Positions 25,521-63,843 of a stretch of 64,000 nt of DNA are shown one piece after another. The DNA is from an uncultured delta proteobacterium. Its GTDB lineage: Bacteria; Desulfobacterota; Desulfomonilia; UBA1062. The DNA is taken from assembly GCA_963847605.1 (NCBI GenBank), contig CAWKAM010000001.1, positions 78,351 to 142,350 on the forward strand, written 5' to 3'. Both the position numbers and the translations under genes were made by a program. Each line of letters begins with the position of its first letter. Position 1 is the first letter of the stretch. The notes under the pieces are model-generated. The model was given only the letters and a program-made list of their open reading frames with translations. It was not told where the DNA came from and did no database searches.

Positions 25521-27944
25521 CTAGATATTTGCGTTTCTTAGCCGCATGGCATTGGTGATGACGGAGACGGAGCTTAAGCTCATGGCGGCAGCCGCGATCA
25601 TGGGTGACAGGATGATCCCGAAGAAGGGATACAGTATCCCTGCTGCAATGGGCACACAGGCGATGTTGTAGAAAAACGCGAAAAAGAGGTTCTGTTTGAT
25701 ATTGCGCATTGTCGCCTTGCTCAGGAGCCGCGCCCTGGCAATGGCCCTTAAATCACCCTTGATGAGCGTGACATGTGCGCTCTGGATGGCAATATCCGTC
25801 CCTCCTCCCATAGCAATCCCCACGTTCGCCTGTGCAAGGGCCGGGGCGTCATTGATACCGTCTCCGGCCATGGCGACTAGGCGGCCTTGTTCTTGAAAAT
25901 CTTTGATCATGGCCGCCTTTTCTGTTGGTGACACCTCCGGAATGACATGGTGGATGCCTAGTTTCTTGGCGATTACTTCTGCAGAGGTTTTTCTATCGCC
26001 CGTGAGCATGACCAGGTGAAGGCCATCCTGGACAAGCATATGTACTGCAGACGTAGATGTTTCCTTTATGGTATCAGAGACCGCAATGACCCCTTGCGCC
26101 TTGAGATCAACGGCAATGTACATCACGGTAGCACCCTGGCTTGAAAGCTGCTCTGCCTGGGGATGTAACCATCCGGGCTCTATGTGGAGGTCTTCTAACA
26201 GGCGCTCGTTTCCTAATGCAACCCTATAACCATCCACAATACCGGTAATACCTTTACCGATATGGGCGGTGAATTCCGTATGGGAAGTCGGTTGGATCCC
26301 ACGCAAAATGGCAGCCTGTACGATGGCCTGAGACAAGGGATGCTCACTGCCCTTTTCGATGCTTGAGGCCAGATAGAGGAGCTTGTTCTCGTCAAATGTA
26401 CCACTTGGAATAATCGTTTGAAGTGTAGGTTTGCCTTCGGTGAGCGTCCCGGTCTTGTCTATTACCATGGTGTCGACTTTTTCAAGGGACTGGATGGCCT
26501 CGGCATCACGGAAAAGAACACCGAGACGCGCCCCCATGCCTGTGGCTACGAGGATGGACATGGGTGTAGCGAGGCCTAAAGCGCATGGGCAGGCTATGAT
26601 AAGGACCGATACTGCTGATACGATGGCATAGGGTAGCCTGGGCTCCGGCCCTATAATCATCCATAATATAAAAGAGATAAGAGAGACGGCAAAAACCGCA
26701 GGGACAAAATACGAAGCCGCCGTATCGGCAAGTTGTTGGATAGGTGCCCTGCTCCTGCTTGCCTCGATGGTGAGGCGAACGATCTGTGAAAGAAGCGTCT
26801 CGCTGCCAACCTTCTCGGCTTTCATAATAAAAGAGCCGTTCCCATTCACCGTGGCCCCCACAACCTTGTCACCCTTTGATTTTTCCACGGGTATGGGTTC
26901 GCCCGTGATCATGGATTCATCAAGAGCGCTTGCGCCCTCCAGGATAATTCCGTCTACGGGGACCTTTTCACCGGGCCTCACCCTCAACCGGTCACCGTGA
27001 CGGATCATATCAAGTGCGATATCTTCTTCGCTCCCGTCTTCCCTGATGATCCGGGCCGTCTTTGGCGCAAGCCTCAAGAGGGACCTGATAGCCTCACCTG
27101 TGCGGGCTCTCGCTTTGAGCTCAAGTACCTGGCCCAAAAGGACAAGGGTGACGATCATGGCAGAAGCCTCGAAATAAACACCCACAGTCCCCTCTTTGCC
27201 CTTCAGCGTTGCCGGAAAGATATCCGGGAGAAGACTTGCGACAAGGCTGTAGCCAAAAGACACGGCTACGCCGATGCCGATGAGGGTAAACATGTTGAGG
27301 TTCCTTGTTTTCAAAGATACCCAGGAACGAACAAAGAAAGGCCATCCTGCCCAGAGGACCACGGGTGTTGCCATGAGAAGCTCCGTCCATACAAAGGTCT
27401 TTTCGGATGCGATGCCTTCAAAAGGATGGCCCGGCAGCATATGACGCATTGCAATAACTATAAGAGGGATGGTCAATACGAGCCCAAAGAAGAACCGCCT
27501 CTTCATGTCGATATATTCAGGGTTTTCCGTTTCTTCCAAAGAAGGGGCCATAGGCTCGAGAGCCATGCCGCACTTGGGGCAGATGCCCGGTCCGTCGGTG
27601 ATGACCTCCGGGTCCATCGGGCAGGTGTATTTCCCTGGGGCACCTCCCTGCATTATGGTTGGCGGTTGTGTCATAGAGAGGTTCGGACCAGAGAGCTTGG
27701 CAATATATGTTTGAGGGTCATTCTTGAACTTCTCCAGGCATTTGGGATTGCAGAAGTAATATGTTGCCCCCTTATATTCATAGGGAATGTAAGCATCTTT
27801 GTCTGTTGTGCTCATCATGCATACAGGATCAATGAACTCAAGTTGTCCTGATGCGGGGGAGCAATGAGGGCAGCCCTTGAGAGAAGTCTGAATCTGAATT
27901 CCTTTTTCCATGATACCTATGGGCTTGTCTGACGGATTATCCAC
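25521..27944 (-). CDS. copA: copper-translocating P1B-type ATPase with N-terminal YHS/TRASH-like and HMA metal-binding domains
   Basis: CPC transmembrane motif ([13 protein letters not shown]), DKTGTLT phosphorylation site, [10 protein letters not shown] and HP motifs. N-terminus has a YHS-like domain (DPVCMM...[19 protein letters not shown]) and a Cys-rich segment (YTCPMDPEV...CPKCGM). Confidence 0.9.
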
Positions 27945-28012: not shown

Positions 28013-30367
28013 TCAAGGCCTTATAGAAGACCTTTCCCTGGCCTTATCCTCAACAAACTGGGTCTCGGTTTTGATGATCTCTTCCAGCCTGAGCTTGTCT
28101 TGTGAATAGGTTTCCAGGAGCAGTACTGGTGAAATAGTCCTGCCCTTTCTAAATGCGATTCTCAGGGTATGGGGGCCTGAGTATTCGAGATAATCTGCCA
28201 CAAGCAAAGACTTGCCTTCCTTGATAACACAAGCATCGGAAGGGAGTGTGAGAGAAAAGGGTCTGAGGGTCTTGTAGGTATAGGCTTGTACCTGTTTCAG
28301 GCGGCCCTCAGTGCAGGAGATGACAGATGCGCCCGGCGGCAGGTGGGCATTGATGCGTGAGGAGATCTCCTGGGGTATCAGTGGATGCCTGATTTCTATC
28401 TGGATATATTCGCATTTGGAGGTGATACCATAGGAGGTGGGAGGGATGGTACTTATCTTCATGACAGGGCTGAAGCCCTGGGAGTAGATTGCTTCCAGTC
28501 CGGCTCTCCTGATAGCCCTTCTGACCATCTCCTGGAAATCCCTTGGGGATAAGAACCTCAAACCCTGCTCCTTGGTGATGCCGATTACATAAGGATATAC
28601 ACCATGAGCCGATGGCTCCTGAAAAAGGTGAATGGGTTCCTGCTTTGGGCGAATGATATTGATAAGCTCTTCAGAGCAAACGCCGCAGCCGCTGCATTCC
28701 CCATCCCTACAGTCAACGGTCGGCTTTGCACCATGGGCGCGCATACGCTCAGCGAGTAGGAAGCCCTTTTTAATGCCCATATCTATGAAGTCCCAGGGAA
28801 GCACCTGCTCCCTTCTCCTTTGTGCAAGATATGATGCAGGATCGATCCCCGTTGCCTCAAAGGCCTCGTCCCAGGCATTCTCATGGAGGGTATCACTCCA
28901 TCCGTCCAGATAGGCCCCACGGCGATGTGCTTCCATAAGGACGTGTGAGAGCCGCTCATCGCCACGTGCGAAAACCCCTTCCAAGAAAGACAGCCTCGGG
29001 TCGTGCCATTTGAGGGTGATGCTCCGGTGGCGCAGTTGTTTCTGGAGGCGGTTCAACAACTCTTGGTAGTGGTTGGCGGAGGCCTGTTCTTCCCACTGGA
29101 ACGGGGTAAATGCCTTGGGGATGAAGCAGGAGATGCTGATGGTGAGATTGCCCCGAAAGGCCTTAGAGAGCTTACGGGACAGCGTGCAGATGGCTTCGAT
29201 ATCCGCATCTTCCTCTGAGGGGAGTCCTACCATGAAGTAGAGCTTCAATGATCGCCATCCAAGTTCCCTGATCAGCGATGCGCTCCTGAATAGGTCGTCT
29301 TCGGTGTTGCCTTTGTTGATCACGGCCCTCAACCTCTCTGTGGCAGCCTCGGGTGCCATGGTGAATCCAGGTTTCTTGACCGAGGCAATGAGGTCGGCCA
29401 CCCTGCGGGTGATACCTTCCACCCGCAACGATGGGATACTCACCGAGATCTCTCGGGACGGGCAATGGACCGATTCAATGAGTTCGTTTATATAACTCAA
29501 GTCGGTCATGGAAAGGGCCATCATGGCAACGGTGTCATAACCTGTTGCAGCGAGACCCTGCCGGTAGGACTCCATCACCGATTGGTATGAACGCTCACGA
29601 TAGGGACGGTAGATCATGCCTGCCTGGCAAAAACGGCACCCTCGCGTGCATCCCCTGGCCACCTCCACGCCGATGCGGTCGTGGACGATTCCTATATGGG
29701 GTAAGACAGGAGAACCAGGGAAAGGGAAGAGGTCAAGGTCAGGCAGCACCCTCCTTTTGGGTTTTTCAGTATCACCAGGACGGTATACCCCCTGAATTTC
29801 TGAAAAGGCCTTGACACGCTCCCCCCTGTCTTTCGTTGCCAGACATATCTTTGCCATTTCCTGTACAATCTCCTCGCCGTCGCCGATCACCACAAGGTCA
29901 AGGAAACCCATTACCGGGGCGGGGTTCGCGCAGAATGTGCCGCCGGCGATTACAATGGGATCAATATCGGTTCGTTGTGCTGCTAAAAGAGGGATGCCGG
30001 ACATCTTCAACATGCCGAGCATACTGGTATAGGAGAGTTCATACAGGAGCGAAAATCCTACGATATCAAACTGTGAGAGGGGTCGGCCTTCTTCGAGGCT
30101 CGTAAGGGTGATGTTCTTGCGGAAAAGTTGTTCCGCCAAGTCAGGCCAAGGCGCAAAGACTCTCTGTGCCCAGACGCCGGGCATGCAATTGAGGATGTTA
30201 TAGAGGATCTTGATGCCTGCATGAGACATCCCGATCTCATAGATATCAGGAAAGGCGAGTGCAAAACGCACCTTCACCTCATCATCCGGTTTGATTATCT
30301 GGTTTACTTCGCCTCCTATGTACCGGGAAGGTTTGGTGATGGATTCAAGCAGATCGTGAATGTTCAT
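28013..30367 (-). CDS. large B12-binding-domain radical SAM protein fused to a DUF2344-like C-terminal domain (TIGR03960/TIGR03936-type)
   Basis: 784 aa. Canonical CX3CX2C (ARGCTRGCRFCQAG). N-terminal B12-like Rossmann region. The C-terminal ~200 aa resemble DUF2344. Confidence 0.75.
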   Translation of the reverse strand: MNIHDLLESITKPSRYIGGEVNQIIKPDDEVKVRFALAFPDIYEIGMSHAGIKILYNILNCMPGVWAQRVFAPWPDLAEQLFRKNITLTSLEEGRPLSQFDIVGFSLLYELSYTSMLGMLKMSGIPLLAAQRTDIDPIVIAGGTFCANPAPVMGFLDLVVIGDGEEIVQEMAKICLATKDRGERVKAFSEIQGVYRPGDTEKPKRRVLPDLDLFPFPGSPVLPHIGIVHDRIGVEVARGCTRGCRFCQAGMIYRPYRERSYQSVMESYRQGLAATGYDTVAMMALSMTDLSYINELIESVHCPSREISVSIPSLRVEGITRRVADLIASVKKPGFTMAPEAATERLRAVINKGNTEDDLFRSASLIRELGWRSLKLYFMVGLPSEEDADIEAICTLSRKLSKAFRGNLTISISCFIPKAFTPFQWEEQASANHYQELLNRLQKQLRHRSITLKWHDPRLSFLEGVFARGDERLSHVLMEAHRRGAYLDGWSDTLHENAWDEAFEATGIDPASYLAQRRREQVLPWDFIDMGIKKGFLLAERMRAHGAKPTVDCRDGECSGCGVCSEELINIIRPKQEPIHLFQEPSAHGVYPYVIGITKEQGLRFLSPRDFQEMVRRAIRRAGLEAIYSQGFSPVMKISTIPPTSYGITSKCEYIQIEIRHPLIPQEISSRINAHLPPGASVISCTEGRLKQVQAYTYKTLRPFSLTLPSDACVIKEGKSLLVADYLEYSGPHTLRIAFRKGRTISPVLLLETYSQDKLRLEEIIKTETQFVEDKARERSSIRP

Positions 30368-46441: not shown

Positions 46442-46678
46442 GAGACTGTTATAGGGCGGGAAATTAGGTTGGTCAAGGATGAGAGGAACCGGAAATCAAA
46501 AGCCGGCACTTAAGCAGGGGAAATGGCAATCAACCGGTGCACCTCCTTATATGGGAGTTCACAGGAATCTTGTTATGGGAAGCACAGTTTAGTGTTTTCT
46601 CAAGGGAGACATATGTATATGATGAAATGCATAAATTTGTTCTTTCACGAACTCATCTTTACAAGAGAAGGAGATTCT

Positions 46679-47950
46679 ATGTGCGATACTATTGGAATTG
46701 GACCAAAATTTACCAGTTCCGGTATAAGCACCTTCGGAAAGAACTCGGACAGGGAGGCCGACGAAGCGCAGCTTGTCCTTTCGGTTCCTCGGGAAAGCCA
46801 TCCTGAAAGGGAAGTCCTTAAATGCACCCATATTGCGATTCCCCAGGTAAGTTATACCCACGCCATTGTAATAAGTAAGCCCTTCTGGATCTGGGGAGCG
46901 GAGATGGGTGTAAATGAGAAGGGCGTAGTCATTGGGAATGAGGCCCTATTCACAAAGATCAAACCCGAGAAGGAGCAGGGGCTCATCGGGATGGATCTCT
47001 TGCGGCTTGCGCTTGAAAGGTCGGGCACGGCCGAAGAGGCGGCGGGTGTCATTATCGATCTCTTAAGTAAATATGGACAGGCCGGTCCATGCGGTTACCG
47101 CGACAAGAAGTTCAGTTATATGAACTCATTTATTATTATGGATCGGGACCGCATCATGATTCTAGAGACTGCCGGCAGGGACTATGCCGTCAAACTCCAT
47201 AACGATTTTGCCGTTATCTCAAATGGGATTACCATCACTTCAGATTGGGACCGGTCTTCATTTGCCAAGGGCACCGATTTGAGTATCTTAACCGACCCCA
47301 TTACTACTTATTTTGCCGGCAGTGTTTTCAGGAAAAGGCAAAATGATGCCGCCATACTGAAGGGAAAAGGCAGTATCGGAATAACCGATGTGTTTAGCAT
47401 GCTGAGAAGCCACTATGGTCCTACACCATCCGAAGGCTTCAACCGTGATGTTTGTATGCATGTATCAGATCCATTGATCAGGAGGTCCCAGACAACAGGT
47501 TCCATGGTAGTAGAACTACACCCGGACGATAAGATCAGGATATTTGTTACTGCGGGTTCCGCCCCGTGCCTTACACCATTTAAACCGTTCATGCCTGCAG
47601 CACCTTTCACGGATACGTCCAAGGGGGGCAGTGTTTATTCCGAAGATTCATTCTGGTGGCGGCATGAGGCGTATCATATCAATGCCGTCCTCCGGTATGA
47701 TTCCGTGAAACCCCTGGTTCAGGGAAGCATCATGGATCTTGAGGCACAATGGTCTGAATACGTACCGGCCCATGTGTGGGATAGCAGTGAAGATTCATAT
47801 AGAGAGACCTCCCACAAGGCATTTATACAGTCGGATAGAATGGAAAGGGCTATAATGGAGCACATGAGAGAGATGAAAAGGCCTGCAACCAGACTGTCTT
47901 ATTTTTACCTGAAGCATATTGCACGACGTACAGGGATTCCCATCGTATAA
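46679..47950 (+). CDS. peptidase family C69-like (Ntn-hydrolase dipeptidase / secernin-like) with Cys2 nucleophile
   Basis: From the ATG at 46679 (RBS AGAAGGAGA) the protein begins MCDTIGIG...GKNSDRE. This fits the C69 pattern C[ST]T.[IL]..G....DGS...RNED, with Cys directly after the initiator Met. The ORF-track start at 46523 is an upstream extension. Confidence 0.7.
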   Translation: MCDTIGIGPKFTSSGISTFGKNSDREADEAQLVLSVPRESHPEREVLKCTHIAIPQVSYTHAIVISKPFWIWGAEMGVNEKGVVIGNEALFTKIKPEKEQGLIGMDLLRLALERSGTAEEAAGVIIDLLSKYGQAGPCGYRDKKFSYMNSFIIMDRDRIMILETAGRDYAVKLHNDFAVISNGITITSDWDRSSFAKGTDLSILTDPITTYFAGSVFRKRQNDAAILKGKGSIGITDVFSMLRSHYGPTPSEGFNRDVCMHVSDPLIRRSQTTGSMVVELHPDDKIRIFVTAGSAPCLTPFKPFMPAAPFTDTSKGGSVYSEDSFWWRHEAYHINAVLRYDSVKPLVQGSIMDLEAQWSEYVPAHVWDSSEDSYRETSHKAFIQSDRMERAIMEHMREMKRPATRLSYFYLKHIARRTGIPIV

Positions 47951-49636: not shown

Positions 49637-50905
49637 GTGATCAATGCAATACGCGGCATGAACGACATCTTGCCCGACGAAGCTGCCAAGTGGCGCTTCG
49701 TTGAGGATACTACACGCAGGATTTTCTCGCTCTACGGCTTCTCCGAGCTGCGTCCGCCCGTAATGGAGCGGACCGAGCTCTTCCTGCGGGGCATAGGCTA
49801 TGACACCGATGTGGTGGAAAAACAGATGTACACCTTCACGGACAAGTCCGGCGACTCGGTCAGCTTAAGGCCCGAGGCCACGGCATGCGTGCTCCGCGCG
49901 GTCATCGAGCACGGCCTGCTGAACAAGGACCCCATTGTCAAGCTTTACAGCATCGGCCCTATGTTCCGTTATGAGCGGCCCCAGAAGGGGAGATACCGCC
50001 AGTTCCACCAGATCAATGCAGAGCGCCTTGGCGAGGACGGCCCCCTGGCCGACGCTGAGACCCTTGCCATGGCCTATGACCTGGCGAGCTCACTATTGGG
50101 CAAAGAAGCGCTGCTCATGGAGGTAAACTCTCTGGGCTGCAAGGCCTGCAGGCCTGCATTCAAAGAGGCATTGCAGCAGTTCCTGGCTTCACGGCAGGAC
50201 AGCCTCTGCGAAGATTGCAGGAGGCGGATGCATACGAACCCTCTACGGGTCCTGGATTGCAAGGTGCCGACCTGCAAGGAGGCTGTGGAGGGGGCACCCT
50301 TCATTGAAGATCATCTCTGCGATGACTGCAGGACCCACTATGGGACGGTCCTTACCGGACTGAGCACCCTTGGCGTGCGGTATGAGAAAAACCCCAGGCT
50401 GGTCCGCGGGCTTGACTACTACACCAGGACCACCTTCGAGATTACGGCCACGGGCTTGGGCTCCCAGAATGCGATAGTAGGCGGCGGCAGGTATGACGAC
50501 CTCCTGAGCACCCTGGACGGGCCGGCAGTGGGGGGTATCGGCTTCGCCTTCGGCATGGAGCGTATGATCATGCTCATGGGTGAACCCCGGGAGCAGCTCG
50601 CGGGGTGCTTTGTGGTGAGCCAGGCCGAGCCACGGGTAGAGCAGGAGGCCTTAGGCCTTATCTCCGAGCTCAGGTCTGCAGGCATCCGGGCCGAGGCCGC
50701 CTTCGGCAAGAGCTTCAAGGCACAGATGCGCCGCGCCGACAAGGCGGGCTACCCCATCTGTGTCATCATGGGCGAGAATGAGATAAATTCCTCCACCCTG
50801 AGCGTCAAGGACATGTCGGGCCATGTGCCTCAGCGTACTATCGAGCGAACGGCTGTCCTTAATGAAATCAAATCCATGCTTGTGAATAAAGGAGAGAATG
50901 CGTGA
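49637..50905 (+). CDS. hisS: histidine--tRNA ligase
   Basis: GTG start 6 nt after [22 protein letters not shown] is the HisRS motif 1 region. 422 aa. Confidence 0.9.
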
Positions 50906-52689
50906 CGAGCGGTAAGCAAGGACTGAAACGCACACACTACTGTGGCGAGATCAACCATATCCCTGAGGGGACATCAGTGACGCTCTTCGGCTGGGTCCAG
51001 CGCAGGAGGGACCTTGGCGGGCTCATATTCATCGATATACGCGACCGCACCGGCATTGCCCAGGTGGTTTGCAACCCTGAATCCCAGCCCAAGGCCCATG
51101 CAGTGGCCCATACTTTAAGGCCCGAGTACTGCATCGCCATCACGGGCGAGCTGCTGAAACGGCCGGAAGAGATGCGAAATCCTTCCATGGCAACAGGCGA
51201 CATCGAGGTTACAGCCCATGAGGTGGTGGTGTTCAACGAGGCCTTAACCCCGCCCTTTGTCATTGAAGACGGTGCAGACATCAACGACACCTTAAGGCTC
51301 AAGTATCGGTACCTCGATCTGAGGAGGCCAAGCCTCCAGAGGAACATACTCCTGAGGCATAAGGCAGCGCAGAGCATTAGAAAGTACTATGACGCAAACC
51401 GCTTCATCGAAGTGGAGACCCCTGTGTTGGCCAAGAGCACACCTGAAGGGGCCCGCGACTACCTGGTCCCGAGCAGGATCTTCCCGGGGAAATTTTATGC
51501 CCTGCCACAGTCGCCCCAGCTCTTCAAGCAGCTCCTCATGGTCTCGGGCCTCGACCGCTACTACCAGATCGTGAAGTGCTTCCGCGATGAAGACTTAAGG
51601 GCCGACCGCCAACCGGAATTCACACAGATCGATATCGAGATGTCGTTCGTGACTATGGACGACGTCCTCAAGATCAACGAAGGGGCCATTGCCGATCTCT
51701 TCCGGGAGACTATCGGTGTGGAGCTTCCTCAACCCTTCCCGAAGATGAGCTACGAACAGGCCATGTCCGAGTATGGCAATGACAGGCCTGACACCCGCTT
51801 CGGTATGAAGCTTGTCGATGTATCCGATATCGCCGCCACATCTGACTTCCGTGTTTTTACCGCCGCGGTTTCCGAGGGCGGCGCGGTCAAGGCCATTGCC
51901 GTCAAGGCCCCGCACAACCTCAGCAGGAAGGACCTGGACTCTTTGCAGTCAATCATTGCGGATTATGGAGCCAAGGGCGTGCTCTGGGCCCGTCTCGATG
52001 AGGACGGGTGGAAGTCTACGCTTACAAAATTCTTCAAGGAAAGCCAGTTTGCCGGCATTTCCCAGCGGCTTGATATGGTGCCGGGAGATGTAGCGTTGTT
52101 TATTGCTGACAAGAAGAGTGTAGTGAATGCAAGCCTTTCAGCCCTGAGACTTCACTTGGCAGAGCGGTTGAAGCTGATACCGGAAGGTTCCTTCGGAGCC
52201 CTATGGGTCACGGACTTCCCACTGCTCGAATGGAGCCAGGAGCAAGACAGGCTGGTCTCGGTCCATCATCCCTTCACCGCCCCGGTCCCGGAAGACATAG
52301 CCCTGTTGGATTCTGATCCTGCCAAGGTCAAGAGCCAGGCCTACGATATGGTGATCAACGGCAGCGAGGTGGGCGGAGGCAGTATAAGAATCCACACGCA
52401 AGATATCCAGCAAAAGGTCTTCAAGGTCATCGGGTTGACCGAAGAGCAGGCCAAGGTCAAATTCGGGTATCTGCTGGAGGCCCTCAGGTATGGGGCACCG
52501 CCGCATGGCGGGATTGCCTTTGGGTTCGACAGGCTCATCATGCTGCTCGCAGGCACCACGAGCATCCGCGATGTCATTGCCTTCCCCAAGACCCAGAAGG
52601 CGTTCTGCACCATGACCGAGGCCCCTTCTGATGTCGACCCCAAGCAGCTTGCCGAACTCGGCCTGAAGATGATAGAGGACGAGAGATGA
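50902..52689 (+). CDS. aspS: aspartate--tRNA ligase
   Basis: 595 aa. Class-II motifs ([18 protein letters not shown]; GGGSIRIH; [15 protein letters not shown]). 4-nt overlap with hisS. Confidence 0.9.
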
Positions 52690-53486
52690 GGCAATTTTTT
52701 TACTACCTTTTCATGGTGCTGTTGCTTTTCGGTTGTGCAACGACAAAGACTGCGCAGGAAGGCGCCCAGACGGACCCCAGGAAAGAGGCCATGAAGGTGT
52801 TCGCTCAGAGCATAAGGCAGGGCATGAATGCCCTTGACCATAAGGATGATGTGAAGGCTGCAGAGGAATTCGTCCAGGCGTTCAGGCAGCTTAGGACTGC
52901 TGACGAGGAAGACAGGGCACTCATGTCCGCAGCCGCGGACCAGCTCAAGGAGGTTGTTGAGATCTCGGGCTTTGAATATGCAAAGAAGGAATCCTTCTCA
53001 CTGCTCATGCTTTACCTCGATATGCTCAAGGCATACACGGATAATGATGCACGCACCCTGCAATCGATGGCCGTTACATTCAAAACCACCTATCAGGATG
53101 TCCAGCAGAAGACGGCGGAAGAAAAGCAGAAGCACCTCGAAGAGCTTGGGACTGAAATAACCCAGAAGCGTGAGGAAATACAGAAGAGTTCCGAACCGGC
53201 GCTTCTTGAAGCCTACCCGACCATCTATGTAGTGAAAAAGGGGGACACCCTACCGAGTATTGCCGCGCGCCATGAGATATATAACGATTCCTTCATGTGG
53301 CCGCTCATCTACAAGGCGAACCGCGACCAGATCAAGGACCCCAAGGTACTCTATGCAGGCCAGGATCTGAAGGTCCCCAGGGATATGACCACCGAGGAGA
53401 TCATCGAGGCCCGCCGCGAGGCCGGCGCACCGGAGCCGGAAAAGATACCCAAGGACGCATACATACCGAAAGGGAAGAAGAAATAA
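52686..53486 (+). CDS. LysM-domain lipoprotein
   Basis: Lipobox LLLFGC. C-terminal LysM ([51 protein letters not shown]). Confidence 0.75.
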
Positions 53487-53487
53487 T

Positions 53488-55401
53488 ATGGCCAGATGGG
53501 ACCCTGAAAAGAAGGTGTTCTATTATACGCCGGGCAAGAATTTTGAATCCGGTATCCAGGAGATCGAGCGCGGGAACTACTACCGCTCCATATTCAACTA
53601 TGACGAGGTTCCGAAAGTGGACTTCGATATGCGGATGATCCCCATTCAGCCCCCGGAAGACATCTTTATCACCGACACGACCTTCCGTGACGGGCAGCAG
53701 TCCATGACCCCGTTCTCTGTTGATCAGATAGAACGCATCTACGATTTTCTTCACCGCATCAGCGGAGACACTGGTCTCATCAGGGAGAGTGAGTTCTTCC
53801 TCTACTCGAAAAAGGACAAGTCCGCCGTGGAGTCCTGCCTTGCCAAGGGATATAACTTCCCCAAGGTGACCTCCTGGATCCGCGCCCACAAGGATGACCT
53901 GAAGCTGGTCCGTGAATTCGGCATCGACGAGACCGGCATTCTCACCTCCGTGTCCGACTACCACATCTATCTCAAGCTCGGATGGTCCCGACGCAAGGCC
54001 TTGAACGACTACCTCGGGATCGTCAGGGAGGCATTGGGCCAGGGCATCATTCCCAGGTGCCACTTCGAGGATGTAACAAGAGCCGACATCTATGGATTCT
54101 GCATCCCCTTTGCCCGGGAGCTCATGAAGCTCAGGGAAGAATCGGGTGTCGACGTGAAGATCAGGCTCTGCGACACTATGGGCTACGGCGTGTCATTCCC
54201 CGGGGCTGCGCTGCCCAGGGCCGTGGACAAACTGGTTCGAGCCTTCATCGACGATGCCGGTGTCCCCGGGCACCTGCTGGAATGGCACGGGCACAATGAT
54301 TTTCATAAGGTGGTGGTAAACGCCACTACGGCCTGGCTATACGGGTGCAGTGCGGTCAACTGTGCCATCTTCGGGTTCGGGGAGCGCACCGGCAATACAC
54401 CCATCGAGGCCATGGTCTTTGAGTATCTGTCGCTGAGAGGCCACGACGAGAGCATCGACACAAGAGCCATCACCGAGTTGGCCGAATATGTGAACACGGA
54501 GATCAACTACCACATCCCCGGCAATTACCCCTTTGTGGGCAGGAACTTCAATGTGACCAGGGCGGGCATCCACGCAGACGGCCTGGTGAAGAACGAGGAG
54601 ATCTACAATATCTTCAACACGGGTAAGTTCCTGAACCGGCCCATCGAGATCGCCATCACGGACAAGTCCGGCAAGGCCGGCATCGCGCACTGGGTCAACT
54701 CCCACTTCAAGATCGAGGATTCCAATAAGATCGACAAGCGCCATCCGGGCATTACCAGGATGTACCAGCAGATCGTCAAGGATTTCGAGGACGGTCGCAA
54801 CACCTCCATGACGGATGAGGAGCTGGAAAAGCTCACCTTGCGTTTCATTCCCCACATCTTCCTGTCGGGCTTCGACCTTATCAAGTATGAGGCCCAGGAG
54901 TATGCAAGCCAGCTCATCGAGAAGCTTCTTGAGAATGAAGACATGAAGAGCATGAAACCCAAGAAGCAGGAACCGGTCATCACCGAGTTCATCAAGGAGT
55001 ATCCGTTCATCCAGTTCGCCTATATCACGGGCATGGACGGGATAAAGATCACCAAGAACATCACCCAGCCCGAGTACCGCGGACAGTTCATGCATAAGAT
55101 GAAAGAAGATGAGGACTGCTCCGATCGGGAGTGGTTCATCAAGGCCGTGGAGACCGGCAAGCTCCATGTGAGCGGGGTTGCAACCTCCCGCATCACCGGC
55201 GCATTGATCATTACGGTCTCCGCACCTGTCCTGAATGAAAAGGAAGACATGGTGGGCGTGCTGGGCCTGGACATCAGGTTTGAGGATGTGGTCAAGGCCA
55301 TACAGAGCATGTACGAGGCCTGGGGCATGAGCATGAGCCCCAAGGATGTCCAGCGCTACCAGCGGCTGCTCTGGGATGAGCTCCACCGGGACTTGGTCTA
55401 A
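53488..55401 (+). CDS. HMGL-like acyltransferase of the isopropylmalate/homocitrate/Re-citrate synthase family fused to a C-terminal Cache-like domain
   Basis: N-terminal TIM-barrel motifs DTTFRDGQQS and EWHGHNDF. The C-terminal ~150 aa (…DREWFIKAVETGKLHVSGVATSRITGALIITVSAPVLNEKEDMVGVLGLDIRFEDV) match the Cache/PAS-like consensus. Immediately upstream of icd. Confidence 0.75.
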   Translation: MARWDPEKKVFYYTPGKNFESGIQEIERGNYYRSIFNYDEVPKVDFDMRMIPIQPPEDIFITDTTFRDGQQSMTPFSVDQIERIYDFLHRISGDTGLIRESEFFLYSKKDKSAVESCLAKGYNFPKVTSWIRAHKDDLKLVREFGIDETGILTSVSDYHIYLKLGWSRRKALNDYLGIVREALGQGIIPRCHFEDVTRADIYGFCIPFARELMKLREESGVDVKIRLCDTMGYGVSFPGAALPRAVDKLVRAFIDDAGVPGHLLEWHGHNDFHKVVVNATTAWLYGCSAVNCAIFGFGERTGNTPIEAMVFEYLSLRGHDESIDTRAITELAEYVNTEINYHIPGNYPFVGRNFNVTRAGIHADGLVKNEEIYNIFNTGKFLNRPIEIAITDKSGKAGIAHWVNSHFKIEDSNKIDKRHPGITRMYQQIVKDFEDGRNTSMTDEELEKLTLRFIPHIFLSGFDLIKYEAQEYASQLIEKLLENEDMKSMKPKKQEPVITEFIKEYPFIQFAYITGMDGIKITKNITQPEYRGQFMHKMKEDEDCSDREWFIKAVETGKLHVSGVATSRITGALIITVSAPVLNEKEDMVGVLGLDIRFEDVVKAIQSMYEAWGMSMSPKDVQRYQRLLWDELHRDLV

Positions 55402-55552
55402 GGTGAGGAGCACCTCGCAAGGGGTGATGCTCGCTGTTATCTATGGAAGAAACTTGTAAGATCGTGAATAGGCCCCATGCCTTGGTTAGCTAGTTCCCCT
55501 CCTTTCTAAGGAGGGTGACAGGGAAGATTTGTTTCTATGGAGAATAGGAAAA

Positions 55553-56767
55553 ATGGAAGGGACCAAGATAACATTTGAAGGCGGCAAGCTGGATGTCCCC
55601 GATGACCCCGTCATCCCATTCATCGAGGGGGACGGCGTAGGGCCCGATATCTGGGCCGCCTCGCAGGCGGTCTTTGATGCGGCGGTGAAGAAGGCATACG
55701 GCGGGAAACGCCGGATCATATGGAAAGAGATCTATGCGGGCGAAAAGGCCAATACGAAGTTCGGCGCCTACCTGCCCGGAGAGACCATCGCGGCCTTGAA
55801 GGAATACCTCGTGGGCATAAAGGGCCCGCTTACCACGCCTGTGGGCGGCGGCATCCGCAGCCTGAATGTGGCCTTGCGCCAAATCCTGGACCTTTTTGCG
55901 TGCATCAGGCCCGTGAAGTACTACCAGGGGACGCCTGCCCCGGTGAAGCAGCCCGAGCTCGTAGATATCACGGTATTCCGCGAGAACACCGAGGACCTCT
56001 ATGCAGGCATCGAGTGGTGCAAGGGCAGTGTTGACGCGACCAAGGTAATCAATTTCCTCAACGAGCAGATGGGCACCCACATCAGGGAGGATTCCGGCAT
56101 CGGCATCAAGCCCATATCCGTCCATGGTACCAAGCGTCTGGTGCGCATGGCCATCGAGTATGCCGTCAAACATCACAAGAAGACCGTGACACTCGTGCAC
56201 AAGGGCAACATCATGAAGTTCACCGAAGGGGCCTTCAGGGACTGGGGCTATGAGCTCGCCCGCGATGAGTTCAATGATGTCGCTATTGCTGAAGCAGATC
56301 TCTCAAAGAAGTACGGAGGAATGCTCCCCGAGGGAATGATTCTCATCAACGACCGCATTGCCGACTCCATGTTCCAGCAGGTGCTGCTGCGGCCTGCGGA
56401 ATACGAGGTTCTCGCCGTGCCCAACCTTATCGGTGACTTTATATCGGACGCCCTTGCGGCCCAGGTGGGCGGGCTCGGCATGGCGCCCGGCGCCAACATC
56501 GGTATCCCTGTGGCCGTGTTCGAGGCCACCCACGGCACTGCGCCAAAGTATGCAGGTCAGGACAAGATCAACCCCGGCTCGCTTATCTTATCGGGCGCCA
56601 TGATGCTCGACCACATAGGCTGGACTGAGGCAGGTGATCTTATTCGCAAGGGTATCGCCAAGGCCATATCGGACAAGCAGGTCACCTACGACCTGGAGCG
56701 CCAGATGCAAGGCGCCACCCTGCTCAAGTGCTCCGAGTTCGGGAAAGCCATAATTGAGCGGATGTAA
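55553..56767 (+). CDS. icd: NADP-dependent isocitrate dehydrogenase (homodimeric type)
   Basis: [34 protein letters not shown] parallels the E. coli Icd N-terminus. The ORF-track start is an upstream TTG at 55529. Confidence 0.9.
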
Positions 56768-62808: not shown

Positions 62809-63843
62809 ATGGCAGAGTCAAAGAAAAAGAAACTCGGGGTCAATCAGGTTCTTGCAGTCCAGGTAGTGGTGAGCTTCGTTGTCATCGCCGTTTTGATCGT
62901 GGTAGGGGGATTACTTATCTTCCGTGTCATGGGGGCTGAATACACTCAGTTCACCGTGGCAGGGTTCATTGCGACGGTATACATGGCATTCATTACGTTC
63001 CAGCCCGCAGGCACCCTGTTTGCGGCACGCAAGGAACTCATCGAGGAAAAGGTGGAGCTTCCAACAGGGGGAGATGCAGGGGCGGATAGGCCTGTGGGGA
63101 ACCCCTGGCTCATGACTCTTCCTGTATCGTTTCCCATCGCCTTGTTCTGCACGGCGATCATCATGGGTATCATCTATGGAACCGGGTGGACACCGCGCCC
63201 CCGCATAACCTTAGTGCTCTCGTTGCTCTATGTCATACCGCACTACCTCATTACCCGCCGATTCATCGGACGTGACCTCAATAGCCTCGCAGCCAAAGGA
63301 CTAGGTGCCTATGCCGGGGTCATATCGAAGAAGGAGTATTTCTGGAAAACATACATACTGCCCAACTTCATATTCCAACTCATCATAAACTGTCCGATCG
63401 CGAACAGGGGGTTCCATCAGGAAATGCTCAAACTCTCCCGGGAATTCTCCAATCTGCAAGGTCTTCTCCCGGTCAAGGCGGTCGTGGTTGACCATGTCAT
63501 CACCTTTATGTTCGTGTGCAACTTCACCTTCCTGGCTGCCATCATGTATACCATTTCGGGCTTTTACCTGGGCATAATAACCCTGGATGGTTTAGGCAAG
63601 GGAAAGGGCATCCATGGATTTCTTTACTTCCTCATCATGCTCTTTATGGGGATAGTAGTGGGTATTCTGTATGGACTTGCTCTTGGTGTAGCCGGATTTG
63701 AAAACATCCCGTTTGCAGCTGCCATGATATCCAAGGTCGTGTGTGTTTTCATCGCAGTGTACCTTGGCTCTTACATGGCCATGGGATGGACGGCCAAAAA
63801 GATTAGGGCGCATATGGAAGCGCAGGCAGCCTCTGCCGGGTAA
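62809..63843 (+). CDS. hypothetical polytopic membrane protein
   Basis: 344 aa with ≥7 hydrophobic segments. RBS GGGGAGG before the ATG. Confidence 0.6.
   Translation: MAESKKKKLGVNQVLAVQVVVSFVVIAVLIVVGGLLIFRVMGAEYTQFTVAGFIATVYMAFITFQPAGTLFAARKELIEEKVELPTGGDAGADRPVGNPWLMTLPVSFPIALFCTAIIMGIIYGTGWTPRPRITLVLSLLYVIPHYLITRRFIGRDLNSLAAKGLGAYAGVISKKEYFWKTYILPNFIFQLIINCPIANRGFHQEMLKLSREFSNLQGLLPVKAVVVDHVITFMFVCNFTFLAAIMYTISGFYLGIITLDGLGKGKGIHGFLYFLIMLFMGIVVGILYGLALGVAGFENIPFAAAMISKVVCVFIAVYLGSYMAMGWTAKKIRAHMEAQAASAG

Follow-up and report, generated by a model that had tools for sequence, protein, structure and literature searches.

A probable Re-citrate synthase of the Syntrophus type with a cytoplasmic PDC/Cache module, a candidate allosteric sensor

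Introduction

Re-citrate synthase (Re-CS) is the entry to the oxidative branch of the tricarboxylic acid (TCA) cycle, and hence to glutamate synthesis, in many strict anaerobes, among them syntrophs, sulfate reducers including gut Desulfovibrio, Bilophila and Mailhella, and Nitrospirota. CKL_0973 is reportedly the characterised enzyme of Clostridium kluyveri and SYN_02536 that of Syntrophus aciditrophicus, the latter being said to accept only acetyl-coenzyme A (acetyl-CoA) and oxaloacetate. Here we compare with these enzymes a gene from an uncultured delta proteobacterium, located on a stretch of 64,000 nucleotides (contig CAWKAM010000001.1 of assembly GCA_963847605.1, positions 78,351 to 142,350 of the forward strand; hereafter the window), whose product joins an HMGL-like catalytic barrel to a C-terminal PDC/Cache module.

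Regulation through C-terminal domains is familiar among the DRE-TIM Claisen-condensing enzymes. Leucine and isoleucine feedback acts through the C-terminal domain of LeuA and CimA, which is unrelated to the module considered here, and the RAM domain of Sulfolobus homocitrate synthase has a role in lysine feedback. Swapped C-terminal regulatory modules have a precedent in the superfamily in these two domains, with RAM being deleted in the Sulfolobus construct 6KTQ ("dRAM"). Cache families are reported to be mainly extracellular, apart from YkuI_C and Diacid_rec, and to be joined to signalling outputs (Upadhyay et al. 2016), so that the fusion of a Cache domain to a metabolic enzyme departs from the usual pattern.

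Results

As judged from sequence comparison, the product of the gene at 53488-55401 is probably a long-form Re-face citrate synthase (EC 2.3.3.3) from the C. kluyveri/Syntrophus clade, with the PDC module as putative allosteric sensor. The protein is 54% identical to SYN_02536 over residues 1-629, that is end to end with the module included, and 49% identical to CKL_0973 over residues 30-457 (BLAST against the characterised Re-CS sequences in Table S1 of Layton et al. 2025, PMC12016533), both values being slightly underestimated because the machine-read supplement sequences miss a few letters. None of the NCBIfam models for isopropylmalate, homocitrate and citramalate synthases came near its cutoff on the window protein (60-140 bits against cutoffs of 410-950), the top score among them being that of nifV with 138 bits against 463, and no NCBIfam model reached its cutoff for the Re-CS family. 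In a neighbour-joining tree of the catalytic core, which carries no support values and is indicative, the window protein falls with SYN_02536 inside the long-form clade. The gene and the parts of its product are as follows, all on the forward strand.

53488-55401 (+): probable Re-citrate synthase gene, Syntrophus-type long form, 637 residues plus stop (open reading frame list; identity to SYN_02536 and CKL_0973)
53665-54492 (+): HMGL-like (DRE-TIM) catalytic barrel, residues 60-335, including R67-D68 and H267/H269, the presumed metal/substrate site (Pfam PF00682)
54493-54858 (+): post-barrel helical subdomain, residues 336-457, common to the short C. kluyveri enzyme (weak HCS_D2 match; end of the CKL_0973 alignment)
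54859-55398 (+): C-terminal cytoplasmic single PDC/Cache module, residues 458-600, and two-helix subclade tail, about 600-637 (PF22673, AlphaFold2, Foldseek)
55126-55137 (+): pocket motif R547-E548-W549-F550, counterpart of PctA R126-x-W128-Y129 and of KinD R131 (HMMER alignments to 5LTX and 4JGO)
55270-55272 (+): D595, counterpart of PctA D173, an amino-group contact of the ligand (alignment)

Within the catalytic part, PF00682 matches residues 60-335 with 102 bits and HCS_D2 weakly matches residues 351-404. The residues expected to be catalytic from the DRE-TIM family, R67, D68, E194, H267 and H269, are invariant among 31 orthologues, as are M1 and W4 of the conserved N-terminus, which confirms the start codon at 53488. 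Orthology to the characterised enzymes and intact catalytic motifs are established by this analysis. A search for a solved Re-CS structure found none; in a full-length AlphaFold model of moderate quality (predicted local distance difference test, pLDDT, 68; predicted template modelling score, pTM, 0.50), the catalytic part matches homocitrate and isopropylmalate synthase structures with E 1e-16 (Foldseek). The predicted reaction is the condensation of acetyl-CoA and oxaloacetate to citrate.

A preliminary description of this DNA, made from its letters and open reading frames, had already proposed a Re-citrate synthase with an HMGL-like TIM barrel in its N-terminal part, and both proposals are borne out by the identities and model scores above. 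The motifs it quoted all lie in the 637-residue frame it gave (53488-55401, +), with DTTFRDGQQS at residues 63-72, HGHNDF at 267-272 and SGVATSRITGALIITVSAPV...DMVGVLGLDI at 562-596. Its likening of the enzyme to those of C. kluyveri, Syntrophus and Dehalococcoides holds for the first two, whereas the Dehalococcoides enzyme, together with that of Heliomicrobium, shares only 27-30% identity with the window protein and belongs to a distant, separate short clade.

The Re-CS family is still widely misannotated in NCBI records, where "2-isopropylmalate synthase" occurs. Many members are named "histone-lysine N-methyltransferase", one "triose-phosphate isomerase" and others "cache domain-containing protein" (clusters P0005, P0010, P0013, P0014, P0018, P0026 and others), names which look like propagated misannotations.

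The protein's C-terminal region carries a Cache/PDC fold. MCP-like_PDC_1 (PF22673) matches residues 497-600 with 46.9 bits (cutoff 27, E 4e-12). The dCache_1 model is matched in its distal half only (profile positions 57-155 of 240) with 30 bits, below its cutoff of 45, as expected since the window protein has a single PDC module while the model describes a double one. An AlphaFold2 model of residues 455-637, built from a 23-sequence alignment, is confident (pLDDT 85.5, pTM 0.77) and displays a long N-terminal helix, a strand, two helices, more strands and then two helices (in model numbering, helix 7-27 and strands 54-61, 119-128 and 134-143), so that the long N-terminal helix followed by an antiparallel sheet with flanking helices, which defines the PDC fold, is found in it. 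All of the top 50 Foldseek matches of this model in the PDB are Cache/PDC domains, with a best E of 4e-9; they include KinD (4JGO/4JGP, E 4e-9), Tlp3, WalK, PctA/B/C, Mlp24/37 and the intracellular C-terminal domain of YkuI, and the probability is 1.00 for KinD, Tlp3, WalK, PctA and YkuI. HMMER sequence searches agree with Foldseek on these relatives, and the match of the C-terminus to Cache/PDC domains is well beyond chance.

Running hidden Markov model searches of this segment against Cache and PAS models had been suggested in the preliminary description, which called the C-terminus Cache/PAS-like; the PF22673 score upholds the first half of that label, and the second half falls away, as no PAS model matched the window protein at E<=1. 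The LeuA_dimer model likewise gave no match at E<=1, and no LeuA/CimA-type regulatory domain is found among the Foldseek matches of the C-terminal model, so that the alignment to the standard LeuA/CimA domain which would have spoken against a Cache-like domain was seen by neither method. The module nevertheless sits where LeuA-type enzymes carry their regulatory domain, as had been described. Its extent is larger than the last 150 residues assumed earlier, comprising about 180 residues from around residue 458, where the C. kluyveri Re-CS stops, and opening with a long N-terminal helix at 461-481. A domain comparison with characterised Re-citrate synthases, also suggested at that stage, places the module in SYN_02536, where PF22673 scores above its cutoff with 37.8 bits, and finds it absent from CKL_0973, where Pfam detects nothing besides HMGL. 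A novel architecture was consequently rejected as a description of the window protein, the module being present in SYN_02536 and in all 120 of the best protein clusters.

The subclade of the window protein carries an extra tail of about 35 residues, with two helices after the PDC module (…YEAWGMSMSPKDVQRYQRLLWDELHRDLV; 55396-55401 region, alignment columns 601-644). This two-helix tail is absent from the clade of 609-residue proteins, and those of the Syntrophus clade end in another one.

The module is a cytoplasmic PDC domain. No transmembrane-like segment was found in the Re-CS protein, the maximum 19-residue Kyte-Doolittle mean being 1.52, and a periplasmic or membrane-anchored Cache domain was rejected, with neither a transmembrane nor a signal-like segment present. 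The usual Cache arrangement, extracytoplasmic between two transmembrane helices and with a signal-transduction output, is thus not the one found here, where the partner is an enzyme; the module is homologous to Cache domains and an atypical, cytoplasmic member of them.

Residues of the ligand pocket could be transferred from solved Cache sensors by HMMER alignment. The motif of PctA maps onto the window protein as Y121 to E542, R126 to R547, W128 to W549, Y129 to F550, Y144 to A565 and D173 to D595. KinD R131, altered in the R131A structures 4JGQ/4JGR, aligns with R547, while pyruvate-binding KinD has an Ala at the position of D595. In PctA, Y121, R126 and W128 hold the carboxylate of the ligand and Y144 and D173 its amino group, with R126A binding 61-fold more weakly and D173A or D173N abolishing binding (Gumerov et al. 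2022, PMC8915833).

Conservation of these positions was counted over the 196 Re-CS family members having the module. R547 is present in 192/196, and W549, F550, S567 and D595 are each present in every member. Position 542 is mostly Glu; at position 565, 130 members have Tyr, 34 have Cys and 5, among them the window protein, have Ala. In its subclade, G563-V564-A565 replaces D-F-Y and position 565 is Ala, Cys or Thr, and the ligand specificity of this subclade may, given residue 565, be shifted or different. Sixty chemoreceptor relatives keep the R, W, F and S567 positions, with Tyr565 in 57/60 and the Asp in 56/60. The module is under strong purifying selection, with the homologues of ligand contacts as its most conserved features. 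Compared with the five-position AA_motif of dCache_1AA (E542, R547, W549, A565 and D595 in the window protein), three positions agree in the window protein and four in most of the family, and dCache_1AA moreover needs a double Cache domain, where the window protein has a single module. The module should consequently not be classed as dCache_1AA, and amino-acid binding is put forward as a hypothesis.

The fusion was followed in two samples, the 120 best protein clusters (608-642 residues) and the 80 best loci from a scan of one genome per species (labelled L001 onwards). Precomputed Pfam annotations place HMGL and Cache/PDC in all 120 clusters, so that the combination is already recorded in domain databases, and the module is encoded at 76/80 loci from at least eight phyla. 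Long-form loci occur in Syntrophales, Syntrophobacterales, Syntrophorhabdales, Desulfovibrionaceae (Desulfovibrio, Bilophila, Mailhella), Nitrospirota, Omnitrophota, Spirochaetales, Elusimicrobia, Lentisphaerae, Armatimonadota and Termititenax. In the neighbour-joining tree all long forms constitute one clade, and the true short forms, from C. kluyveri, an Oscillospiraceae metagenome-assembled genome and one Armatimonadota metagenome-assembled genome, are basal branches. A fourth apparent short form, nested at L078, was dismissed: its contig stops 7 nt past the match, which makes the form an artefact. Given its presence in 120/120 clusters and 76/80 loci across at least eight phyla, the fusion is, by the sequences sampled, old, widespread and retained, and already present in a characterised enzyme.

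Residues 455-637 alone retrieved 297 proteins at E<=1e-3 from 1.84 billion representatives, and with so few relatives the module can be considered a discrete subfamily. Among the best 150 of the 297, 16 include the Re-CS catalytic part, 59 carry the signalling domain of methyl-accepting chemotaxis proteins (MCPs) and most others are short fragments. In the chemoreceptor relatives the module sits at the extreme C-terminus after MCPsignal, with secondary YkuI_C matches. Several of them are without a transmembrane-like segment, and in the others the transmembrane segments are N-terminal to the signalling domain, so that there, too, the module lies in the cytoplasm. Chemoreceptors P0153, P0166, P0171, P0192, P0236 and others have a single C-terminal PDC domain with a conserved R-W-F...Y...S...D signature. 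A literature search yielded no ligand description for MCPs with a C-terminal PDC module, nothing relevant on cytoplasmic, intracellular or cytosolic Cache domains, and no paper linking a Cache domain to isopropylmalate synthase or Re-CS enzymes, the two primary Re-CS enzyme papers lying outside its coverage.

The surroundings of the gene are described by two further entries.

55553-56767 (+): icd, NADP-dependent isocitrate dehydrogenase (TIGR00183)
49637-53486 (+): hisS 49637-50905, aspS 50902-52689 and LysM protein 52686-53486 (Pfam, open reading frame coordinates)

The icd gene follows the Re-CS gene after a gap of 151 nt and scores 660 bits on TIGR00183 (prokaryotic NADP-dependent isocitrate dehydrogenase, IDH) against a cutoff of 567. 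Its ATG at 55553 is preceded by GGAGAATAGGAAAA, and the TTG listed at 55529 is less probable as a start codon. Adjacency to icd had been taken in the preliminary description as support for the Re-CS role; a true NADP-IDH does adjoin the gene, but this is a minority feature of the family, icd lying at most 6 kb downstream of Re-CS in 17/80 loci and directly adjacent in 12/80. Much more conserved is the linkage to aspS, which in 38/80 loci is the immediate upstream neighbour of the long-form Re-CS gene, on the same strand, with the order hisS-aspS-ReCS in 28/80 (loci L001-L069). In the window hisS, aspS, the LysM gene and Re-CS overlap or abut on the same strand. The aspS linkage might reflect co-transcription or an aspartate/oxaloacetate link.

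The LysM protein between aspS and Re-CS (52686-53486, +, 266 residues) has a lipoprotein-like N-terminus, and the stop codon of its gene lies 2 nt ahead of the Re-CS start. L001, the closest relative, is the sole locus with a full-length homologue at the same position, and L031 has a partial match. A scan for terminators and promoters around the genes gave nothing above shuffled expectation, and an Rfam scan of the window found two transfer RNAs only and no riboswitch near the Re-CS gene.

Related clusters combine the same functions. The Syntrophorhabdales locus L037 contains aspS, ReCS, split aconitase-family subunits and IDH, and the Desulfovibrio locus L049 contains ReCS, IDH and an aconitase-family hydratase. 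Between Re-CS and IDH of L037 (7754-9510) lies a split LeuC/LeuD-like aconitase-family pair of 419 and 165 residues, which scores best on generic "aconitase/3-isopropylmalate dehydratase" subfamily models and might form a small aconitase of two subunits for the citrate branch. The dehydrogenases of L037 and L049 score above the IDH but not the LeuB cutoffs of NCBIfam, scores by which a leu- or lys-type cluster was ruled out for the neighbouring dehydrogenase.

Elsewhere in the window, two open reading frames, 46523-47947 (+, 475 residues) and 62809-63840 (+, 344 residues), have no Pfam match at E<=1e-5. A P-type ATPase bearing YHS and HMBD metal-binding domains adjoins a large radical-SAM protein with DUF2344 at 25521-27944 (-) and 28013-30367 (-), a pair unrelated to Re-CS.

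Discussion

We propose a model in which the PDC module structurally replaces the LeuA/CimA regulatory domain and acts as an allosteric ligand sensor. Its ligand would be a small molecule, with a carboxylate held via R547 and W549 and probably an amino group held via D595, together with Tyr565 in most of the family; glutamate as the end product of the pathway and aspartate as a proxy of oxaloacetate are candidates. The signal would run via the long N-terminal helix 461-481 into the post-barrel subdomain capping the active site. Together with the adjoining NADP-IDH, the enzyme would supply the oxidative TCA branch leading to 2-oxoglutarate and glutamate in anaerobes.

A sensor role is favoured because the module is kept in 76/80 loci and 120/120 clusters with pocket residues 98-100% conserved, and because the same signature is conserved in the 60 chemoreceptors, where the domain presumably senses a ligand. 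An amino-bearing ligand is favoured because D595 aligns with PctA D173, while pyruvate-binding KinD has Ala there, and the near-invariant Arg547, Trp549 and Asp595 suggest allosteric control by an amino-acid-like ligand. Whether the module is a true allosteric sensor appears, on these grounds, about evenly balanced. The more specific proposal, in which the allosteric sensor responds to a metabolite, most plausibly an amino acid (glutamate or aspartate), and would directly control an enzyme of central carbon metabolism, is tentative and falls somewhat short of an even chance.

Several observations weigh against this model. Two of the five AA_motif positions deviate in the window protein (Y121 to E542 and Y144 to A565). 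The combination of R-x-W-[FY] and G-x-D is common in Cache domains, and its conservation may be structural. The full-length model, with its pLDDT of 68 and pTM of 0.50, is too weak to define interdomain contacts or a signalling path, and the short enzyme of C. kluyveri functions in the absence of the module.

The first alternative to an amino-acid sensor is a module that detects a carboxylate without an amino group, for example pyruvate, oxaloacetate, 2-oxoglutarate or citrate, leading to feed-forward activation or product inhibition. KinD, the closest solved relative by sequence and fold, was crystallised with pyruvate (4JGP) and carries R131 at the position of R547, the subclade of the window protein is without the amine-contacting Tyr (A565), and Glu replaces Y121 in most of the family. 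However, the counterpart of the amino-group ligand D173 is invariant in the family, and an acidic pocket residue disfavours polycarboxylates; we therefore consider a non-amino carboxylate unlikely, though worth keeping in view.

Alternatively, the module could mainly serve oligomerisation or stability, building quaternary structure without any ligand. PDC domains dimerise via their N-terminal helices, the LeuA C-terminal domain likewise aids dimerisation, and the module opens with a long helix and has helical extensions in the AlphaFold2 model. The motif residues could in that case be structural, and the Tyr565 position is variable within Re-CS. The Syntrophus enzyme is reportedly a homotetramer of 73-kDa subunits. 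Against a purely oligomerising role stand R547, W549, S567 and D595, which correspond to ligand-pocket positions in solved Cache sensors and are 98-100% conserved across phyla, the chemoreceptor relatives, which conserve the same residues and in which a purely structural role is unlikely, and the short form, which is active without the module, so that we regard such a role as rather improbable.

That the enzyme is instead another 2-oxoacid:acetyl-CoA condensing enzyme (isopropylmalate, citramalate or homocitrate synthase), with the dehydrogenase acting in leucine- or lysine-type chain elongation, accords with the routine annotation of the family and with the LeuC/LeuD-like subunits in L037, but is highly improbable in view of the 54% identity to SYN_02536, the NCBIfam scores of 60-140 bits against cutoffs of 410-950, and adjoining dehydrogenases that lie above the IDH cutoffs and below that of LeuB (105-137 bits against 353).

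The window protein adds a member to the known Syntrophus-type Re-CS family, and neither the enzyme nor its domain architecture is new. A conserved cytoplasmic Cache-type module with an intact pocket signature bears on how carbon is gated into the TCA branch. If the proposed sensor role is true, the module would provide the first demonstration of a Cache-family domain regulating a metabolic enzyme rather than a signalling output, extending the roles of Cache domains past signalling proteins. The DRE-TIM Claisen-condensing enzymes would then also have recruited C-terminal regulatory modules independently three times, the LeuA-type domain and RAM being the other two, and the module would have a common origin with the C-terminal sensor found in chemoreceptors, several of them apparently soluble.

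Comparison with known systems

SYN_02536 shares with the window protein its length class and its full architecture, from the N-terminal extension through the HMGL barrel and the post-barrel subdomain to the C-terminal PDC module. It falls in another subclade and has Tyr instead of Ala at position 565, and the window protein is further set apart from it by its distinct two-helix C-terminal tail and the adjoining icd. CKL_0973 has the same catalytic core but ends at the equivalent of about residue 457, has no PDC module and is placed basally with the short forms.

The LeuA_dimer domain of LeuA/CimA and the RAM domain of Sulfolobus homocitrate synthase occupy the same position, C-terminal to a DRE-TIM Claisen-condensing core, and by analogy the Re-CS module may follow the same presumed logic of feedback by an amino-acid end product. 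The LeuA_dimer fold is unrelated to that of the module, which is PDC/Cache, with no Pfam or Foldseek similarity between the two.

In fold, the module corresponds to KinD (4JGO/4JGP), Tlp3 (4XMR), PctA (5LTX) and the YkuI C-terminal domain (2BAS), with Foldseek E values of 4e-9 to 4e-6, and it shares with these Cache sensors the pocket residues R-x-W-[FY] and ...G-x-D. Solved Cache sensors are mostly extracellular, single or double, flanked by transmembrane helices and wired to kinases or chemoreceptors, whereas the Re-CS module is cytoplasmic, single and fused to an enzyme. Only YkuI_C and the C-terminal PDC domains of MCPs are intracellular like it. The latter are its closest relatives outside Re-CS, with 25-35% identity, the same pocket signature and the same extreme C-terminal placement, but their partner is a signalling module, while that of the Re-CS module is an enzyme.

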